Shown here piece after piece: positions 35,864 through 44,098 of a stretch of DNA of 64,000 bases. This DNA comes from an uncultured SAR86 cluster bacterium. GTDB taxonomy: Bacteria > Pseudomonadota > Gammaproteobacteria > Magnimaribacterales > D2472. The position numbers and the translations under genes were made by a program. Position 1 is the stretch's first letter. Every line of letters starts with the position of its first letter. The notes under the pieces are model-generated. The model was not told the origin of the DNA and did no database searches. It saw nothing but the letters and a program-made list of their open reading frames with translations. The DNA lies in assembly GCA_902525635.1 (NCBI GenBank), contig CABZHV010000001.1, positions 4,640-68,639 of the forward strand, written 5' to 3'.

Positions 35864-38725
35864 ATGTTTAATTTTAAAAATTATTTGTTTGCAGTACTTG
35901 TGCTCACTTTTGGTATTTTTAATATCAATGTTGTTGCTCAAGATTCATCTGCAGATGAAGATGTCGAAGAGGTTGTAATAACCGGTACAAGACTTTCAGA
36001 TCCCAATTTATCTAGTGTCAGTGGTGTTGTAGCTGTTGATGCAGGTGATATTGCTGAAAGAGGTGTGGTTGCAGTTGAGGAGTTACTTGCTGATTTACCA
36101 CAGATATCACTTGGACAAAATATTACAGACTCAAATGGTGCTAATGGTTCTTCAACTATTAGTTTAAGAGGTATAGGTTCAAACAGAACTCTAACCCTAA
36201 TCAATGGAAAGAGAATGGCTCCAGGTACTATCAATGGTCAATCTGCAGCTAACATCAATAACATTCCAGTTTCATTAGTTAGTGAAGTTCAAGTTGTTAC
36301 TGGTGGTGCTTCATCAGTATATGGTTCTGACGCTATTGGTGGTGTTGTTAACTTTATCCTTGATGATGGTTTCCAAGGCTTTAAAGCTAGTTATACACAT
36401 AGTTACTATAACCATAAAAATGAGGACTCTGATATGAGAGCCCTTGTTGAAGCTGCTGGATATCCTCAAGCACCTGATACTGTCAATGTTGGAGACAACA
36501 AAGTTTGGGCTATTATGTTTGGTGCAACTCTTGGTGATAACGGTAACGTTACAGCATATCTTCAAAACAGAGAAAGAGATGCAATTCTTCAAAGTAAGTA
36601 TGACGTATCTGCTTGTGCTCTTTGGGATGGTGGGCCTCAAGCTGCAAATCCTTATGGTTGTGGTGGTTCAGGTACTGTTCCATGGGGTAGATTTGCTAGC
36701 TTTGGTGGCGGGCCAATCACTGATTGGAACTACTCTGTAGCTCCAGGTACTAATGAGTTCGAAGATTATCCAGGACCATTTAACTATGGACCATTTAATT
36801 ATTTCCAAAGACCAACAGAAACACTTTCTGGTGGTTTCTTTGCTGATTACGAAATTGCTGACAACATGAGCTTTTATGCAAGTGCTCAATTTATGGATGA
36901 TAGAACTGTTTCACAGATTGCTCCTTCTGGTGCTTTCTTTGTAACAAGCTCCATTCCTTGTGCTAACCCTTTAATGTCAGCACAACAGTTTAAGTTAATT
37001 TGTACAGACCAAGGTCTTACAGCTGCTGATTCAACACCATCTTACATAGGTAGAAGAAACCTTGAAGGTGGGGGTAGACAACAAGACATCAGACATAACT
37101 CTTACAGATATGTAATGGGTGTTGAAGGTGAGCTATCAAGTGGTTGGACATACGATGTTAGTTATTCTAACTCTGAAACAGCTGTTGCAAGTACATACAT
37201 GAACGATCTATCTATTACTAGAATCAAGAGAGCTCTTGATGTTGTTGCTGATGCAGACGGAAACCCAGTTTGTCAGTCAGTGGTAGATGGTTCAGATCCA
37301 CTTTGTCTTCCATGGAACGTTTTTGTTAACAACGGTAACCAAATTGTTGATAACGAGGCTGATGGTGTGACACAAGGTGTTCTTGATTATCTTATAGTTG
37401 ATCTATACGCAAGAGGAGAAGTTTACGAAGAAATTTGGCAAGCTGTTTTATCTGGTGAGATCGATGCTTTAAACGGTGCTAACGTTGTAGTTGGTGTTGA
37501 AAAAAGAACAACAGGAATGGATAACAGACCTGATAACGGCTTCTTAACAGGCGATGGTGCTGGTCAAGGTGGACCAACAAAAGCACTTGGTGGTGAGTAT
37601 TCCGTTGATGAAGTATTTTTTGAAATGGGTATTCCAGTAAGTGATCAACTTTCAGTTGATTTAGGAGCTAGAATTTCAGACTACTCAACAGGACAAGATA
37701 CTGATACTTGGAAAGTTGGGGCAAAATATGTTGTTAACGATAAAGTTACTGTTAGAGGAACAACACAGTATGCTGTAAGACACGGAAACGTGTTTGAGTT
37801 ATACGGTGACCAGTTCTTAGGTTTATGGTCAGGTAGCGATCCTTGTGCAGGATCTTCACCTTCAGCTTCGGCTGCTGAGTGTGCTCTTACAGGAGTAACT
37901 TCTGCTCAATATGGATCAGTTCCTGATTCACCAGCAGGACAATATAATGCTATCTATGGTGGTAACCCTAACGTTAATCCTGAAGAGTCTGATACTATCT
38001 CATTTGGTGTTGTTATGGAGTTAACAGACAATCTGACTGTTTCAGTAGATTATTCAGATATCACTATTGAAGGCGCTATTGGAAGTGTGTCTCCTGCATT
38101 TAGCATGGACAACTGTATTTCTACAGGATCACCATTACTTTGTGCAAATATTAACAGAAATTCTGTTAACGGAAACATATGGATTGGTTCTGGTGCAGAT
38201 GCTCCAAACGTAGTTTCTACTACATTGAACCTTGGTGAACTATCTACAAGTGGTTACGACATTGTTGCAGACTACTCAATGGATACAGCAATGGGTCCAT
38301 TAAGCATTAAATCTAATATTGCTATCACAGATACTTTCGATATTACTGAAGTTGTAGGTTTTGGAACTGCAGAATGTGCCGGTTATTGGGATGGTGGTGG
38401 AACCTGTGGTGGTCCAACATTTGAACTTCAAACTGTAACATCTGCTACATTATCTTTAGATCAAGGTGACTTAGTGGTAACACATAGATATCTAGATGAA
38501 ATCACTGACTTAGGTCCGTTTGATTCACCTATTGATGCGCAAAACTATTTTGATGCTGCTTTTAGCACATCATTTGGTGATGTTACTGTTTATGTTGGTG
38601 TGAATAACGTTTTTGATGCTGAAGCTCCTGTATTGGATGATTTAGCACCAAATGGTAATACATTCCCATCAATATATGATGCATTTGGTAGATATATATT
38701 TACTAATCTTACTTATCAGTTTTAA
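35864..38725 (+). CDS. TonB-dependent receptor
   Basis: AGGGGA RBS before ATG 35864, signal peptide, EEVVITG TonB box, GGASSVYGSDAIGGVVNF, C-terminal YQF. Confidence 0.95.
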   Translation: MFNFKNYLFAVLVLTFGIFNINVVAQDSSADEDVEEVVITGTRLSDPNLSSVSGVVAVDAGDIAERGVVAVEELLADLPQISLGQNITDSNGANGSSTISLRGIGSNRTLTLINGKRMAPGTINGQSAANINNIPVSLVSEVQVVTGGASSVYGSDAIGGVVNFILDDGFQGFKASYTHSYYNHKNEDSDMRALVEAAGYPQAPDTVNVGDNKVWAIMFGATLGDNGNVTAYLQNRERDAILQSKYDVSACALWDGGPQAANPYGCGGSGTVPWGRFASFGGGPITDWNYSVAPGTNEFEDYPGPFNYGPFNYFQRPTETLSGGFFADYEIADNMSFYASAQFMDDRTVSQIAPSGAFFVTSSIPCANPLMSAQQFKLICTDQGLTAADSTPSYIGRRNLEGGGRQQDIRHNSYRYVMGVEGELSSGWTYDVSYSNSETAVASTYMNDLSITRIKRALDVVADADGNPVCQSVVDGSDPLCLPWNVFVNNGNQIVDNEADGVTQGVLDYLIVDLYARGEVYEEIWQAVLSGEIDALNGANVVVGVEKRTTGMDNRPDNGFLTGDGAGQGGPTKALGGEYSVDEVFFEMGIPVSDQLSVDLGARISDYSTGQDTDTWKVGAKYVVNDKVTVRGTTQYAVRHGNVFELYGDQFLGLWSGSDPCAGSSPSASAAECALTGVTSAQYGSVPDSPAGQYNAIYGGNPNVNPEESDTISFGVVMELTDNLTVSVDYSDITIEGAIGSVSPAFSMDNCISTGSPLLCANINRNSVNGNIWIGSGADAPNVVSTTLNLGELSTSGYDIVADYSMDTAMGPLSIKSNIAITDTFDITEVVGFGTAECAGYWDGGGTCGGPTFELQTVTSATLSLDQGDLVVTHRYLDEITDLGPFDSPIDAQNYFDAAFSTSFGDVTVYVGVNNVFDAEAPVLDDLAPNGNTFPSIYDAFGRYIFTNLTYQF

Positions 38726-38741
38726 TAACTATTTGTAAATT

Positions 38742-38770
38742 AAAAAGAGGGCTTTTGGCCCTCTTTTTTT
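38742..38770 (+). terminator. Rho-independent terminator
   Basis: AAAAAGAGGGC-TTTTG-GCCCTCTTTTTTT. Confidence 0.9.
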
Positions 38771-38934
38771 ATATAAAATAAACTTTGATACAATAATAAA
38801 TATGAATTTCTTAAAAAAAATTAAGATTAAAGCTCTGCATTTTCTATTTGCGAATTTTACAAAACTATTTATTTTTTTTATGAATTTATATGTAAAATCA
38901 CAGGTAAAATAACCCTAAATTAGCCCAGAAATTT

Positions 38935-40497
38935 ATGTATCGATTTCTTTATTTATTATTACTCTCTTTCTCATTTGACGTACTAGTTCATCCTGTTTCA
39001 TCTATTAAGAAATTCTCTGATGAAAATGCACATCTTCCATCACCTTTACCTGATAGAGTGATATTAACTTGGAATGATGACCCTTCAACTACTCAAGCTG
39101 TTAATTGGAGAACAGATATTTCTGTGAGATCTGGGCTTGCACAAATAGCAATAGCGAATGCAAATGGAAGAGCACTTATGCCTGAGGAATATAAAGCAGA
39201 GACAACTTATTTCAAAAGTGACATTAATGAGGCTCATTACCATAGTATTACATTTAAAAATCTTCAACCTAGTACCTTATATGCATATCGTGTTGGTGAT
39301 GGAGTAAACTGGACAGAATATTACCACTTTAAAACAGCAAGCGACAAAGAAGAACCTTTTAGCTTTATATACTTTGGTGATGCTCAAAATGAAGTTAGAA
39401 CTCATTGGTCAAGAGTTTTTAGGGAAGCATTTCGTGATGCTCCTAGAGCAGCATTTACACTTCATGCAGGTGATTTAATTGATGAACATAATAAAGACTC
39501 ACAATGGGGAGAATGGCATCAAGGACCTGACTGGGTAAACGGAACAATACCGGTGATTGCTACCCCAGGAAATCATGAGTACCAAATAGACTCTGAGACC
39601 AAAAGAATATGGACAAACAAAGAAGGTATAAGTGTAAATATTGAAATCGAATCTTTTAATGATGATAATCCCAAGATTTTTATTATTGATATCAAAGATT
39701 CCAATGGAATAACAGGAACAATACAGACAAATGATTCTGGAGAAATTATTAGTACCGATAAAGGCATTGAGTTAATTACAGGGTATAAAGAAGAAGAGTT
39801 AGTAAATAATTATATTTTAGGTGGCAAAGCACCATTATATGACCGTCTACAAAATTCTAGTAGTATCCAAAAGGTTAGCAATCACTGGCGGCCACAATTC
39901 TCATTTCCAATTCAAGAAGTTCCAGACGAAAGGCTTAAGGAAACACTTTATTATTTAGATTATCAAGGCGTAAGATTTATTTCACTTGATTCAAATATTG
40001 AAATGGAAATTCAAGTAGATTGGCTCAGAAAAGTTCTGGAGGAAAATGAAAATCGTTGGACGATTGTTACCTTTCATCATCCCCTTTATTCACCTGCGTC
40101 AGATCGTGATAACTTTGAAATGCGTCAATTGTGGAAACCTATACTTGATGAATTTAAAGTTGATTTGGTTTTAAGTGGACATGATCATAGTTATTCCCGA
40201 ACTGGATTAATAGATACTGAAAATATTAAAAATATTCCAACAGGCTATCAGCAAGCTTATGATCCAAAAATTGGAACAGTGTATGTTGTCTCAGTCAGTG
40301 GACCAAAAATGTATGAGATTACTAAAGGCCCATATGCAAAAAAACTAGGTGAGAATACTCAGCTCTATCAAATTATAGATGTTAATAACGATATTCTTAA
40401 GTTCCGAGCTTTTACAGCAACTGGTGTCTTATATGATAAATTTATTCTTCAAAAACGCAAAGGTAAGCCGAATATATTAATTGAAACTAATTTATAA
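38935..40497 (+). CDS. Purple-acid-phosphatase-like metallophosphoesterase with N-terminal FN3-type domain
   Basis: Signal peptide; Y.YRVG FN3-like motif; FGDAQ, AGDL, GNHE, FHHP, GHDH motifs. Confidence 0.88.
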   Translation: MYRFLYLLLLSFSFDVLVHPVSSIKKFSDENAHLPSPLPDRVILTWNDDPSTTQAVNWRTDISVRSGLAQIAIANANGRALMPEEYKAETTYFKSDINEAHYHSITFKNLQPSTLYAYRVGDGVNWTEYYHFKTASDKEEPFSFIYFGDAQNEVRTHWSRVFREAFRDAPRAAFTLHAGDLIDEHNKDSQWGEWHQGPDWVNGTIPVIATPGNHEYQIDSETKRIWTNKEGISVNIEIESFNDDNPKIFIIDIKDSNGITGTIQTNDSGEIISTDKGIELITGYKEEELVNNYILGGKAPLYDRLQNSSSIQKVSNHWRPQFSFPIQEVPDERLKETLYYLDYQGVRFISLDSNIEMEIQVDWLRKVLEENENRWTIVTFHHPLYSPASDRDNFEMRQLWKPILDEFKVDLVLSGHDHSYSRTGLIDTENIKNIPTGYQQAYDPKIGTVYVVSVSGPKMYEITKGPYAKKLGENTQLYQIIDVNNDILKFRAFTATGVLYDKFILQKRKGKPNILIETNL

Positions 40498-40594
40498 AAA
40501 GTAAACTAATTAGTAGCACTCGAAATTTTACGTAAATATAAGCATAATACAGAAATATAAAATACAGTTTTACTAAGGACTTTTTTGACTAAAT

Positions 40595-40636
40595 GAGGCT
40601 ATTACTTAGCCAGGAGAGTACTTGATTGGCATTCAA
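40595..40636 (+). pseudogene. Decayed 5' half of tRNA-Ala(GGC) (old attachment scar)
   Basis: GAGGCTATTACTTAGCCAGGAGAGTACTTGATTGGCATTCAA matches the first 42 nt of the reconstructed tRNA-Ala at 33/42 positions without gaps. Confidence 0.85.
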
Positions 40637-40685
40637 CTATAAATTTTATTTTCATACTTGTTTATCTATGTTAGCTTAATAATAT

Positions 40686-41696
40686 ATGACAAGATTTCTT
40701 TTATCACTAGCTGAATCAGGATTTATTCCTGATGTCTTAATAAAAATTGCTGCAAGGTATATCTCTAATAAGCGCCTGAATGAGCAGAGCGTTGATGATA
40801 ATAAGGATAAAATTATCACTGTTCTTTCAAGAGGTGCTGTTGCTGAAAAAACATATGATGCTAATGAACAACACTACGAAGTCCCACCTGAATTTTTTAA
40901 GTATGTTTTAGGAACAAACCTTAAATATTCTTGTTCACTATTTAATGATGTAGATTCTCTCAATGATGCAGAGGAATCAATGCTCAAGCTTTATATGGAT
41001 AGAGCTGATATTAAGGACGGTCATGAAGTTCTTGACCTAGGTTGTGGATGGGGTAGTTTTTCTTTATATGTAGCTGAAAGATACCCAAATATAAATATTA
41101 CGTCAGTAAGTAATTCGAGCGATCAAATTGCTTACATTAAAAATGAAGCACATAAAAAAGATCTGTTAAATATCAAGGCTTTTAGAATGGATGTTAATAA
41201 TCTTGAATTAAATAAACAATTTGATCGCATTGTTTCAATTGAAATGTTTGAACATCTAAGAAACTATAAGTTAATTTTAAATTCTCTTAATCATGCACTT
41301 AAACCTGATGGAAAATTATTCATTCATATTTTTTGTCATAAAAAACTAACATATCTTTATGAAATGAAAAATAATCTTGACTGGATGACAAAATATTTTT
41401 TTCAAGGCGGAATTATGCCTAGTAAAGATATCTTTCAGTACTTTGAGGGTGAGTTAGAAATAATCAATCAATGGGATATAAATGGAAATCATTATTCAAA
41501 AACTTGTAAAGCTTGGTTAAACAATCATTATAAAAATAAGAAAAAAATATTAGACATTTTTGAGAAACACTATGATGAACCTAAAATTTGGTTTAATAGA
41601 TGGAGAATTTTTTTTTTATCGTGTGAGGCTTTTTTTGCATTAAATAATGGTAAAGAATATTTTGTTGGACACTATCTATTTAAAAAATCTAATTAA
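40686..41696 (+). CDS. Cfa/CMAS-family SAM-dependent methyltransferase
   Basis: ANEQHYEVP, KYSCS, LDLGCGWGS, SIEMFEH, FIHIFCH. Confidence 0.88.
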   Translation: MTRFLLSLAESGFIPDVLIKIAARYISNKRLNEQSVDDNKDKIITVLSRGAVAEKTYDANEQHYEVPPEFFKYVLGTNLKYSCSLFNDVDSLNDAEESMLKLYMDRADIKDGHEVLDLGCGWGSFSLYVAERYPNINITSVSNSSDQIAYIKNEAHKKDLLNIKAFRMDVNNLELNKQFDRIVSIEMFEHLRNYKLILNSLNHALKPDGKLFIHIFCHKKLTYLYEMKNNLDWMTKYFFQGGIMPSKDIFQYFEGELEIINQWDINGNHYSKTCKAWLNNHYKNKKKILDIFEKHYDEPKIWFNRWRIFFLSCEAFFALNNGKEYFVGHYLFKKSN

Positions 41697-41780
41697 TAAC
41701 CTACAACTAAAAAAGCAAAATATTATAGATTACTGCCCACTGCATCTTCTGAATTCATAATGTACAATGTCGTTTCTGAA

Positions 41781-41821
41781 GGGGCTATAGCTCAGCTGGG
41801 AGAGCGCTTGAATGGCATTCA
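41781..41821 (+). pseudogene. Intact 5' half of tRNA-Ala(GGC), ending just past the anticodon loop (attL)
   Basis: GGGGCTATAGCTCAGCTGGGAGAGCGCTTGAATGGCATTCA, followed immediately by the stop codon of a minus-strand gene. Confidence 0.93.
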
Positions 41822-42073
41822 TTAATCTAGTGCTTCGTATTCAGGAATAACTTTCATTACATAAACAGCATTTTTAAATTCTTTATGACATGCTGATATT
41901 GTTTCTTTAACACAATGCATAGCATGATTATATTCACCTTGAACTACTGTGCTAGTAGGAAAGGTAGCAACCTTAATATCATCATAGGTATTAATCTTTT
42001 CTATGAATCCTTTAATAGGTGGAATAAAGTTCTCTTTGTTAGGGTACATGCTTATATCTATTGTTACTTGCAT
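41822..42073 (-). CDS. YkoF/thiamine-binding-like small protein
   Basis: 83 aa; ISMYP and STVVQG motifs of the thiamine-binding (DUF77)/YkoF ferredoxin-like fold. Confidence 0.65.
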   Translation of the reverse strand: MQVTIDISMYPNKENFIPPIKGFIEKINTYDDIKVATFPTSTVVQGEYNHAMHCVKETISACHKEFKNAVYVMKVIPEYEALD

Positions 42074-42076
42074 AAT

Positions 42077-42643
42077 CTAAATTTTACACTCCTCAATATT
42101 CTTTTCATTATTTACTCTTGGACTATTAACCATTCGATCTACTGGATAAAACTCTACACGCCTAGATAAACTAGAAGCAAATCTATCTTTACCATTTAGA
42201 TAATCTCTAGCTTCATTATGTTTTAATATAATAGGTTGCCTATGATGTATTGGCGCAAGTTTCTCATTAGCTTCCATAGTTAAAATTGCACAACCTGAAT
42301 CGTTATGAATACCTGCAAAATAAAATACATCATTATTAATGTGGAAGTAATAAGGTTGTTTTACTTCTCCATCTCTTTTCCATTCGTACCAACCATCTGC
42401 AAGAATAAGGCAAGGTTTAGATTCTTTGAATGATGGTTTCTGTCTAACTGTTTCTGATCTTGCATTAATTAGATTCATAGGCTCTTTTGCCCAAGAAGGG
42501 GAGTAAGACCATTTCATAAACTTAGGCTTGTCTGTAATCGTTAGAATGTCTTGAGAAGGTGCAACATTGTAATTCTCTTTAATGCTTACACCAGTAAGCT
42601 CTTTGACATCTATAGTCCTTCTTAAAGTAAATCTTCCACACAT
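42077..42643 (-). CDS. SOS response-associated peptidase (SRAP; YedK/HMCES family)
   Basis: N-terminal MCGRF, YNVAPSQ, INARSET, DGWYEW, IHHRQP. Confidence 0.93.
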   Translation of the reverse strand: MCGRFTLRRTIDVKELTGVSIKENYNVAPSQDILTITDKPKFMKWSYSPSWAKEPMNLINARSETVRQKPSFKESKPCLILADGWYEWKRDGEVKQPYYFHINNDVFYFAGIHNDSGCAILTMEANEKLAPIHHRQPIILKHNEARDYLNGKDRFASSLSRRVEFYPVDRMVNSPRVNNEKNIEECKI

Positions 42644-42702
42644 TTAATAATCTTATAACATAATTATTTTTCGTGCCTTGATAGGTTTGGTAAGATGGGA
42701 AT

Positions 42703-43806
42703 ATGAAAAGACTCCTATCTTTGCTAATTGTTTTTATATTTATCCATGGTTGTTCAGAGCCTGTTACTCCTCCTGAAAAAATTGCTAATGATTTCTATCT
42801 CAACCTCTTAACAGGAAACTTTGATTCAGCATTTCTGATGTTTTCTGATGAATCTAAAGAAGCAGTTACAATATTCGATTTTAAAGAGTATTACACTATT
42901 AATATTGGACGCGATTATGAATTCGCCATCAAAGAATTGGAAGAAAATCCAATTGGTGTCCTCTCAATAGGCTATCCAGCTATTGAAATTATAAATATTT
43001 CAATTTCAGGAAAAACTGCCTCGGTAGACTTATCCGCACAAATTAACGACATTCAAGCTATTGCTTCAAAATTAATGACTAAAATATTAGAAAAATATAC
43101 AGCTAATATTTCTACACAAAAAGAGCTTTCTTCATATGCTGAAGAGATGATTGCTGATGAAATAAACAAAACTGATAATGATGCTCTTCCAAAAATAAAT
43201 CTTAAGGTTTTAAGAATTGATTTAGTTCTTGAAAAAGAAGGTTGGAAGATTAGTGAAAATCTTGCCCAAAATATCCTTCTTGAAAAACAGAAACAGGATC
43301 TAATAAAAGAACAACAAGAGGCTGAGCTTAAAGAACTAAACGAAAAAATAGAAAAACAGAAATTAGAAAATGAACGTATTAAACAAGAAAAGAAGCGCAA
43401 AGATGAAGAGGAGCTAAAAAGAAAGCAAGAGTTAGAAAAAGAAAAACTACAATACATGGAGAATAAAGTTTCAATTTTTGATTTTGAAGCAACAAGAATT
43501 GATACTTATTCAGACAAGAACATACCTGCAGTAAGATTTGCTATTAAAAATATTGGAAATAAATCATTAAATATAGTGAAAGTTACTGTAGTCTTTTATG
43601 ATCGGGATGATTTACCAATATATGAAAAATCATACTCTCCTGTATTAGTTTCAAAATATTCAATCTCTGGAGATACTCCTTTAAAACCAAATTATATTAA
43701 GAGGGAAAAAGAAGGTAGATATTACACAATAGAAGAATTAGGACCTGAGTGGTCTGGCAAGGCTACCATCTCTGTCAGTGAGATTGAGTTTACAGATGAT
43801 GATTAA
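42703..43806 (+). CDS. Hypothetical lipoprotein with central coiled coil
   Basis: Lipobox IHGC; K/E/Q-rich helical stretch; beta-rich C-terminal domain. Confidence 0.75.
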   Translation: MKRLLSLLIVFIFIHGCSEPVTPPEKIANDFYLNLLTGNFDSAFLMFSDESKEAVTIFDFKEYYTINIGRDYEFAIKELEENPIGVLSIGYPAIEIINISISGKTASVDLSAQINDIQAIASKLMTKILEKYTANISTQKELSSYAEEMIADEINKTDNDALPKINLKVLRIDLVLEKEGWKISENLAQNILLEKQKQDLIKEQQEAELKELNEKIEKQKLENERIKQEKKRKDEEELKRKQELEKEKLQYMENKVSIFDFEATRIDTYSDKNIPAVRFAIKNIGNKSLNIVKVTVVFYDRDDLPIYEKSYSPVLVSKYSISGDTPLKPNYIKREKEGRYYTIEELGPEWSGKATISVSEIEFTDDD

Positions 43807-43822
43807 ACTTTTAGGACTAAAT

Positions 43823-43898
43823 GGGGCTATAGCTCAGCTGGGAGAGCGTCAGCGTGGCACGTTGAAGGTCGTCGGTTCGATCCCGACTAGCTCCACCA
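43823..43898 (+). tRNA. tRNA-Ala(GGC), variant copy carried inside the insert
   Basis: 76 nt; acceptor GGGGCTA/TAGCTCC with G3:U70; anticodon arm TCAGC-GT GGC AC-GTTGA; T arm GTCGG-TTCGATC-CCGAC; CCA. Confidence 0.93.
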
Positions 43899-43932
43899 AT
43901 TTAAATAATTTTAGAGTTTTCTATATAAATAT

Positions 43933-43950
43933 GTGACCATATGGTGACCA
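43933..43950. repeat. Tandem GTGACCA repeat with 11-bp period; candidate integrase arm-type site
   Basis: GTGACCA-TATG-GTGACCA, about 105 bp from the right core repeat. Confidence 0.45.
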
Positions 43951-44029
43951 AGAGTCAAAACAACTTTATTTGTAAGAAATGATTTATACTTGAAGCGTGG
44001 CTTTGACTAGGTTTGCGCCTTTTAAGTTT

Positions 44030-44098
44030 TATAACTCGTAGGAGAGCATCCTCATGGCATTCAAGAGGTCCGCGGTTCGATCCCGCGTAGCTCCACCA
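44030..44098 (+). pseudogene. Intact 3' half of tRNA-Ala(GGC) preceded by a decayed, non-complementary 5' portion (attR)
   Basis: TATAACTCGTAGGAGAGCATCCTC-ATGGCATTCAAGAGGTCCGCGGTTCGATCCCGCGTAGCTCCACCA; acceptor and anticodon stems cannot pair. Confidence 0.9.

Follow-up and report, generated by a model that had tools for sequence, protein, structure and literature searches.

Accretion of small integrase-less cassettes on both sides of a tRNA-Ala(GGC) gene as a probable origin of a decayed tRNA half in SAR86 bacteria

Introduction

Genomic islands that leave a 5' fragment of their target tRNA gene were reportedly described by Zhao and Williams in 2002. The class is cited in PMC6563490 and PMC1635311, the former calling such islands "considerably less frequent", and the Islander collection counts 159 of them among 3919 islands, together with 125 tandems (PMC4383910). 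As in the locus described here, an anticodon-centred integration moves the 5' fragment upstream, the gene is made whole again by the element, and tandem arrays occur.

The window, a stretch of 64,000 nucleotides from an uncultured SAR86 cluster bacterium, contains the host tRNA-Ala(GGC) gene in two pieces, and further upstream a decayed copy of its 5' half, hereafter the scar (Table 1). The 5' fragment lies upstream of a regenerated tRNA gene, in the same orientation, in the relative G014 and in two cassettes of the genus, L053 and L056; the downstream host tRNA of the window has been split in its turn. The left junctions end at TGGCATTCA(A) and the identity on the right starts with the first loop base, which corresponds to the anticodon-loop crossover of the Islander class. 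This class relies on an integrase and on a size filter of 2–200 kb. Here, the cargo consists of CMAS, SRAP, Thiamine_BP and an unknown protein, with no integrase gene, and the cassettes are of 0.9–2.2 kb (1186 bp from scar to half, 899 bp in L053 and 1029 bp in L056). In another difference from the Islander islands, families that differ in their arms insert on the two sides of a single tRNA.

The tycheposons of Prochlorococcus have tRNA-Ala(GGC) and tRNA-Ser(TGA) among their targets; new elements displace older ones from the tRNA, the cargo is devoted to nutrient scavenging, and partial tRNAs and degenerate remnants are taken as older events (bioRxiv 10.1101/2020.12.28.424599). Insertion at an island-associated tRNA of the same two kinds, with a partial tRNA as the boundary, was also found here, but the cassettes of the window are devoid of integrase, excisionase and replication genes, and the accessible part of the tycheposon text neither describes a two-sided stack nor specifies the displaced half. 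In the tRNA-dependent lysogeny of actinobacteriophages, the core is approximately 10 bp long, no tRNA is rebuilt and a divergent tRNA of the same isotype is present inside the element (PMC10865867). The segment 41822–44053 has the same layout, but this second insert is not a phage, has no integrase and covers 2.2 kb. Moreover, in the genome G033 its recoded tRNA (tRNA*) is also found by itself at the native site, and its right arm is that of a family normally restoring the 3' half. The islands of SAR11 and Methylopumilus share with this locus the streamlined genomes, the boundaries made of partial tRNA repeats and the near absence of integrases (PMC11796062, PMC10872708). In Methylopumilus, the repeated part comprises the final 20 bases of the tRNA, and in their accessible portions these two sources describe no 5'-side stack and do not state the SAR11 repeat end.

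The cassettes work like these known systems but lack the integrase that defines membership. Integrons also grow by ordered accretion of one- or two-gene units, the older ones being farther from the insertion point. The original prediction had called the locus integron-like, a term that we abandon: no integrase, of the integron type or otherwise, was found in the assembly, the boundaries observed are tRNA halves, where an integron would have attC sites, and the cassettes appear to carry their own promoters. The literature searched, which left most subscription papers outside, held no account in SAR86 of a two-sided stack, of 5'-side stacks or of a spreading recoded tRNA. The locus is an unusual form of ordinary genomic-island growth, with recombinase-less cassettes on both sides of one tRNA.

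Results

Organization of the Locus

The assembly containing the window (G000) has a size of 1.07 Mb, is 78% complete and has a GC content of approximately 32%. The window and the tRNA-Ala loci of 34 other genomes from the genus formed a set of 35 loci; the genus genomes are kin, and counts of alleles and leaders are not independent. ARAGORN and Rfam made a single tRNA call at the locus, the divergent gene at 43823–43898. The core TGGCATTCA was located at positions 40627, 41813 and 44055 and had nine copies genome-wide. The Logan runs containing the stretch were marine, and four of them, each from a different study, were compared.

Table 1. Features of the tRNA-Ala(GGC) locus, in window coordinates.
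Feature	Position	Strand	Basis
Purple-acid-phosphatase-like gene, accessory, likely earlier cargo	38935..40497	+	Pfam PF16656+PF00149; 10/41 genomes
Leader type c, likely element-supplied	40579..40594	+	14/16 identical to 43807–43822
Decayed orphan 5' half of tRNA-Ala(GGC) (scar), old left junction, attL-like	40595..40636	+	32/41; identical in G014
Region 5' of the methyltransferase; ~170-nt arm of fresh cassettes absent	40637..40685	+	Same junction sequence after the G010 ghost scar
Predicted Cfa-like SAM-dependent methyltransferase (CMAS family), cargo of the older cassette	40686..41696	+	Pfam; 14/41 genomes
Leader type b (TGTACAAT), likely replacement promoter	41740..41780	+	Motif reading; 13/35 loci
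Undecayed orphan 5' half, young left junction	41781..41821	+	Intact tRNA here in G014
Thiamine-binding-protein-family gene, stop codon abutting the core	41822..42073	-	PF01910
SRAP peptidase	42077..42643	-	PF02586
367-aa protein	42703..43806	+	No Pfam or NCBIfam match
Leader type c	43807..43822	+	Match to 40579..40594
Complete recoded tRNA-Ala(GGC) (tRNA*)	43823..43898	+	ARAGORN, Rfam; in 3/34 genus genomes with intact gene
GTGACCA in tandem (period 11 bp), likely arm-type sites for the integrase of the 3'-replacing family	43933..43950	+	Sequence comparison
Arm on the element side of the right junction, similar in 7 other loci	43951..44053	+	Alignment
Core and orphan host 3' half, right junction, attR-like	44054..44098	+	Sequence comparison

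The Decayed 5' Half and Its Leader

The entire assembly was scanned, ungapped and on both strands, with the 5' half. Matches of at least 25/41 were limited to four real tRNA genes, the half at 41781–41821 and the scar. Segment 40595–40635 aligned with the half without gaps at 32 of 41 positions, or 32 of 42 when one more base was included. The 33/42 match of the original prediction is obtained when the scar is compared with the intact host tRNA, since both have A as base 42. The other elements of that description were also confirmed. The scar, like the half, stops at the anticodon-loop core, and the same 8 nt, GACTAAAT, directly precede both 40595 and 43823. This 8-mer is common by itself, with 51 copies in the genome; the match widens to 14 of 16 nt, the top rank among 42 distinct tRNA-Ala leaders. 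No folding signal above that of shuffled sequences was seen for the scar. A single Logan contig in run X4 covered 38600–41808 with 39 differences, and a row of run X2 linking 41822 to 40642 was a single weak hint.

The Methyltransferase Cassette across the Genus

A single open reading frame was present between the scar and the half, and the methyltransferase is indeed alone there, as had been proposed. It matched Pfam CMAS with 157 bits and was under the NCBIfam Cfa cut-off. With a threshold of E < 1e-40, it was found in 14 of the 41 genus genomes, every time upstream of tRNA-Ala(GGC) at one site, and it is thus accessory and not core. Five of the 14 carriers kept a scar, and the expected gradation of decay was observed: 32/41 in the window and in G014, 29 in G007, 28 in G032 and a weak 16 in G010. 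The other nine carriers showed no recognisable scar, and in six of them the methyltransferase is abutted by c1, the metallo-beta-lactamase-fold gene that precedes the tRNA at empty sites. The adverse case raised in the original prediction was a core gene, syntenic without scars; the gene is accessory, and the nine scarless carriers weigh against a cassette insertion. We read these carriers as having lost the scar by deletion, a reading supported by G019, in which the methyltransferase stop codon runs into the distal portion of a cassette arm.

The relative G014 possesses the scar, the methyltransferase and an intact tRNA, and is 97.8% identical to G000 until the core at 41821. The cut at 41821 is therefore younger than the decay of the scar. 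To the right of the tRNA, G014 differs from G000 and provides no exact empty allele on that side. In G010, c1 and the host leader are kept and are followed by about 40 AT-rich bases ending with ATTCA at +86 from the c1 stop. In the 11 empty-site loci ATTCA is situated at +82 to +88, and the junction sequence that follows it in G010 is the same as in the window. This ghost is weak by sequence, 3.5% of shuffles equalling its 16/41 against the half, whereas 0.4% match the window scar as well as it does. The G010 methyltransferase groups with that of the window (support 99/98). If the ghost and the window scar derived from one shared event, a later leader exchange would be implied, which would not be the case with two cassette insertions. 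G007 and G032 represent a second scar lineage with different substitutions. On the FabI tree (28 rows, loci without FabI being excluded), the methyltransferase carriers were scattered, with five changes for 10 of the 28 rows.

All 13 loci with leader b had extra genes upstream, and it was found at none of the 14 sites adjacent to c1. It was also observed at the right end of the complete cassette L056. Its TGTACAAT motif is presumably an extended -10 box. A promoter scan remained at shuffle level (15 versus 18.9) and listed neither leader b nor leader c, so the promoter assignments rest on motif reading.

In a genome of another family (G056, locus L040), a distant methyltransferase homolog is located 623–1648 after the tRNA start. 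It is just downstream of tRNA-Ala(GGC), on the side opposite to that of the window's genus.

Phosphatase and Empty-Site Gene

In the window, the place of c1 is occupied by the phosphatase. In 14 of the 35 loci, c1 ends 22–47 nt 5' of an intact tRNA, and 12 of these 14 share one leader type. The phosphatase was rejected as a homolog of c1, which has the metallo-beta-lactamase fold. Out of 23 phosphatase loci examined, two were at the Ala scar, 11 beside tRNA-Ile(GAT), two beside a CAT tRNA and eight near no called tRNA. Its replacement of c1 fits a mobile cargo arriving with leader c, and this arrival was likely still earlier than that of the methyltransferase cassette. The proposal that the phosphatase came on a related element stands in part. 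The leader shared by the scar and the 43823 tRNA resembles that at the right end of the complete 5'-replacing cassette L053 (10/16) and that of G061 (12/16), and the phosphatase occurs at other loci elsewhere; an allele combining phosphatase, leader c and an intact tRNA-Ala was not found among the loci examined.

At two loci (L185 in G016 and L190 in G036), the phosphatase is flanked on one side by an intact CAT tRNA and on the other by a sequence that, on visual inspection, resembles a decayed 3' copy of this tRNA, the arrangement of a one-gene 3'-replacing cassette at another tRNA. In the window, segment 38802–38912, past the terminator of a TonB receptor, contains an open reading frame for a hydrophobic and basic product of 36 aa; several relatives have a similar sequence 5' of c1 or of the tRNA.

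Fresh 5'-Replacing Cassettes

An exact scan of metagenomes for the 5' half without the following 3' half detected seven loci, one being an unrelated intact tRNA and six being orphan 5' halves ending at the core. In five of the six, a common arm of approximately 170 nt follows, in which TTAGTGCA is repeated in tandem; two of these five appear to come from a single population. The sixth stops 3 nt past the core. The two left junctions of the window do not have this conserved arm. The TTAGTGCA arm is also present in G020. It was found as an exact sequence in one of 139 family genomes and by BLAST (E < 1e-5) in six of 41 genus genomes, with three additional chance-level matches of 21 nt, and its distal motif was seen in two GTDB records. 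Scans with the half had been suggested for genomes and viromes; in IMG/VR, the exact-pattern scans gave no match for tRNA*, the orphan half, leader c, the 3' half or either arm family.

Two of these metagenome loci, L053 and L056, are complete cassettes with a new leader and an intact tRNA at the right. Their open reading frames are all small (53–129 aa), and neither showed a matching arm repeat 5' of the rebuilt tRNA. L053 and G010 share 99.5% identity as far as the core, where the insert starts, and after the tRNA L053 continues with the right flank of G010. This is the cleanest filled/empty pair. Together with the pair G000/G014, it places the breakpoints at the core, as anticipated.

A second 5'-side hotspot in the genus is tRNA-Ser(TGA). 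Orphan 5' halves were found there in three of the 30 genus genomes holding the site (L227 in G014, L230 in G061 and L253 in G064), and G064 has a complete 5'-replacing cassette of 1019 bp. The repeat is different (GTACGGC), with the same distal motif in two of the three.

Leftward, 5'-replacing accretion at tRNA-Ala is therefore supported. The ordered leftward stack of the original prediction is sustained by the series of decaying scars, the living 5'-replacing family and the breakpoints at the core. It is not purely leftward or 5', with 3'-half repeats on the right in eight genomes; the second insert of the window restores the host tRNA at neither junction, and the scarless carriers also weigh against it.

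The 3'-Replacing Family

Orphan 3' halves behind a conserved arm were observed downstream of the tRNA in the window and in seven other loci, and in several loci tandem GTGACCA repeats were located at a distance of about 30 nt from the left tRNA, on its 3' side, or of about 130 nt from the right core, on its 5' side. At all junctions of this family, the identity starts at the first loop base. The cargo on this side includes PhoX, PhoD and a restriction-helicase. The right-side stack is ordinary 3' replacement, and on the basis of the alignment segment 43933–44053 of the window is assigned to the 3'-replacing family. A decayed 5' half had been considered for the right junction; this was dropped, the segment aligning with the conserved arm of the seven 3'-family junctions.

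In attP sites of the lambda type, the integrase binds arm-type sites. Paired arm-type sites flank the core in PMC10865867, and on both these grounds the GTGACCA repeats are read as putative arm-type sites.

The Second Insert and the Recoded tRNA

The second insert has a core of 10 nt. Its SRAP and thiamine-binding genes form a mobile module, found again in the tRNA-Ser(TGA) island of G061 (93% over 843 nt), where the neighbour is the open reading frame that comes after the arm in L053. Logan contigs covered 41822–42656 or 41822–42568 in three of the four runs. The 367-aa protein has an N-terminus that we take to be lipoprotein-like. The divergent intergenic sequence 5' of SRAP (42650–42708) recurs between unrelated cargo genes in G019 and G029 (L170, L173 and L174), adjoining a second motif that recurs in cassettes, and is likely a mobile promoter or regulatory unit.

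In the 78% complete assembly, no Ala-GGC gene other than tRNA* is intact. Of its 76 bases, 15 differ from the host type, 11 of them in the anticodon arm and four in the T stem. Pairing is kept, G32-C38 replaces A32-U38, and two of the seven loop bases are changed. The three carriers are G000, G032 and G033. On the FabI tree, G000 pairs with G014 and G032 with G007, both partners being of the host type, and G033 groups with G020, which has host-type halves. The carriers are thus not sisters, and tRNA* likely moves horizontally. In G033, tRNA* is directly behind c1 and the host leader, an arrangement that recombination across the 26 identical 5' bases would yield. It was absent from 150 other genomes of the order, a draw with only eight members of the genus. 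Among the matches listed, the best phage tRNA was 88% identical to tRNA* over nearly the full length. The Logan joint 41811–44054, with 30–31 nt on each side, shows an intact tRNA and no specific empty allele. Inside the tRNA-Ser island of G061 (L047, 8790–10187), a whole second tRNA-Ala of the host type is accompanied by a GTGACCA arm, which indicates that whole tRNA genes travel between islands.

The simplest reading of the second insert is a 5'-family cassette that lacks its arm and is fused to a right end of the 3' family. An origin as a single element carrying a whole tRNA fits as well.

Candidate Integrases

PF00589 had no match in the 78% complete G000, and the mapped region of 20 kb that surrounds the locus contained no tyrosine recombinase. 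Of the 73 PF00589 matches in the genus, 71 were Xer-sized (the Xer label is deduced from size), mostly two per genome, one being truncated by the end of its contig. The remaining two, from G006 and G032, are small recombinases inside elements at tRNA-Leu(TAG) (L181, 3159–11481, and L182, 5180–10947, respectively), which were found in two of 40 other genus genomes. These tycheposon- or satellite-like elements carry an integrase-like gene of 412–420 aa, a small tyrosine recombinase of approximately 200 aa and unannotated open reading frames. The 412–420-aa protein had matches in three of 266 genomes of the order. Helpers are therefore present in the genus but rare, and none was found for the Ala and Ser sites. 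The SRAP relatives in IMG/VR were distant (30–35% identical) and uninformative. INPHARED phages gave generic tRNA matches only, and none of the matches listed covered the arms.

Proposed Mechanism

What was directly observed is a scar ending at the core, a methyltransferase gene that is accessory, filled and empty alleles, and fresh cassettes of the same layout in the genus. We give a probability of about three in four to an explanation taken as a whole: the scar is the orphaned front half left by a cassette insertion into the anticodon loop, and the locus is an additive island that receives cassettes on its two sides from at least two families, none of them with an integrase of its own. The earliest arrival was likely the phosphatase with leader c. 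A small methyltransferase cassette would then have recombined into the 7-nt anticodon loop of tRNA-Ala(GGC), with a tyrosine integrase likely supplied from elsewhere, and would have restored the tRNA at its right end by supplying a promoter and a front half. Every insertion would shift the previous front half leftward, the leftmost presumably being the oldest, and orphan halves and arms would subsequently decay or be deleted, fixing the cargo. A second, younger event would have split the rebuilt tRNA at 41821, bringing a whole recoded tRNA and ending in the arm of the different, 3'-replacing family. From the original prediction, this explanation retains the 5' replacement and the age order; for the second insert, that prediction was incomplete.

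The methyltransferase cassette may alternatively have carried a complete tRNA, breaking the target and bringing its own, the orphan 3' half being deleted later. The second insert displays this layout (orphan 5' half, cargo, whole tRNA*, arm and orphan 3' half), the extra tRNA-Ala of G061 is a whole gene, and the mechanism has been demonstrated in mycobacteriophages (PMC10865867). However, G014 shows no orphan 3' half in the 2.7 kb downstream, and the rebuilt tRNA of L053 and L056 joins the chromosomal flank directly, again with no orphan 3' half. We consider this alternative unlikely.

Slightly less credit is given to a process free of any integrase, in which tRNA duplication and deletion, or gene conversion driven by a nuclease, would have formed the halves and homologous recombination would have spread the cargo. 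Such a spread fits the scatter of the methyltransferase on the FabI tree, and a cognate integrase was found neither in G000, nor among the PF00589 matches of the genus, nor in the genomes of the order. The precision of the junctions argues against it: four junction sequences (window scar, window half, G007 and arm family) begin within 1 nt of the same core end, and the 3'-family junctions all share the first loop base as their start. Three arm families also have tandem repeats with an 11-bp period, and 33 distinct proteins, a scan outside of which lay the small open reading frames of L053 and L056, included no nuclease family except one restriction-helicase on the right side of G010. Finally, a chance similarity, in favour of which there is only the AT-rich background, or an assembly artefact is refuted by the 32/41 of the scar against a genome-wide non-tRNA maximum of 24/41, by the identical scar of G014 and by contigs spanning the scar allele in all four runs.

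The two-sided cassette island would show how streamlined ocean bacteria acquire genes without visible mobile elements, and how the upstream side of a tRNA can host island growth accompanied by promoter turnover. Natural genomes display the series at this locus, from a fresh cassette with its arm to a decayed scar, a ghost and a lost scar. The defined att-like sequences can be used to hunt for the missing helper integrase, and island finders demanding an integrase and 2 kb would overlook these units. More tentatively, and with the odds rather against it, one essential tRNA could be contested by two integrase-less families on opposite sides, with a recoded tRNA, its anticodon arm rebuilt, spreading horizontally as an integration-proof replacement that would enter within a cassette, supplant the host gene and close the hotspot once the orphan halves are lost, as in G033. 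If tRNA* were integration-proof, it would offer a testable example in which the exchange of a housekeeping RNA has closed an integration hotspot.

Additional Observation Downstream of the tRNA

A histidine-biosynthesis-like block, so labelled from N-termini and from one aminotransferase Pfam match, was located directly 3' of tRNA-Ala in five loci (L013, L018, L020, L033 and L046). It was absent from this place in most others, and behaves as accessory at the tRNA-Ala site.
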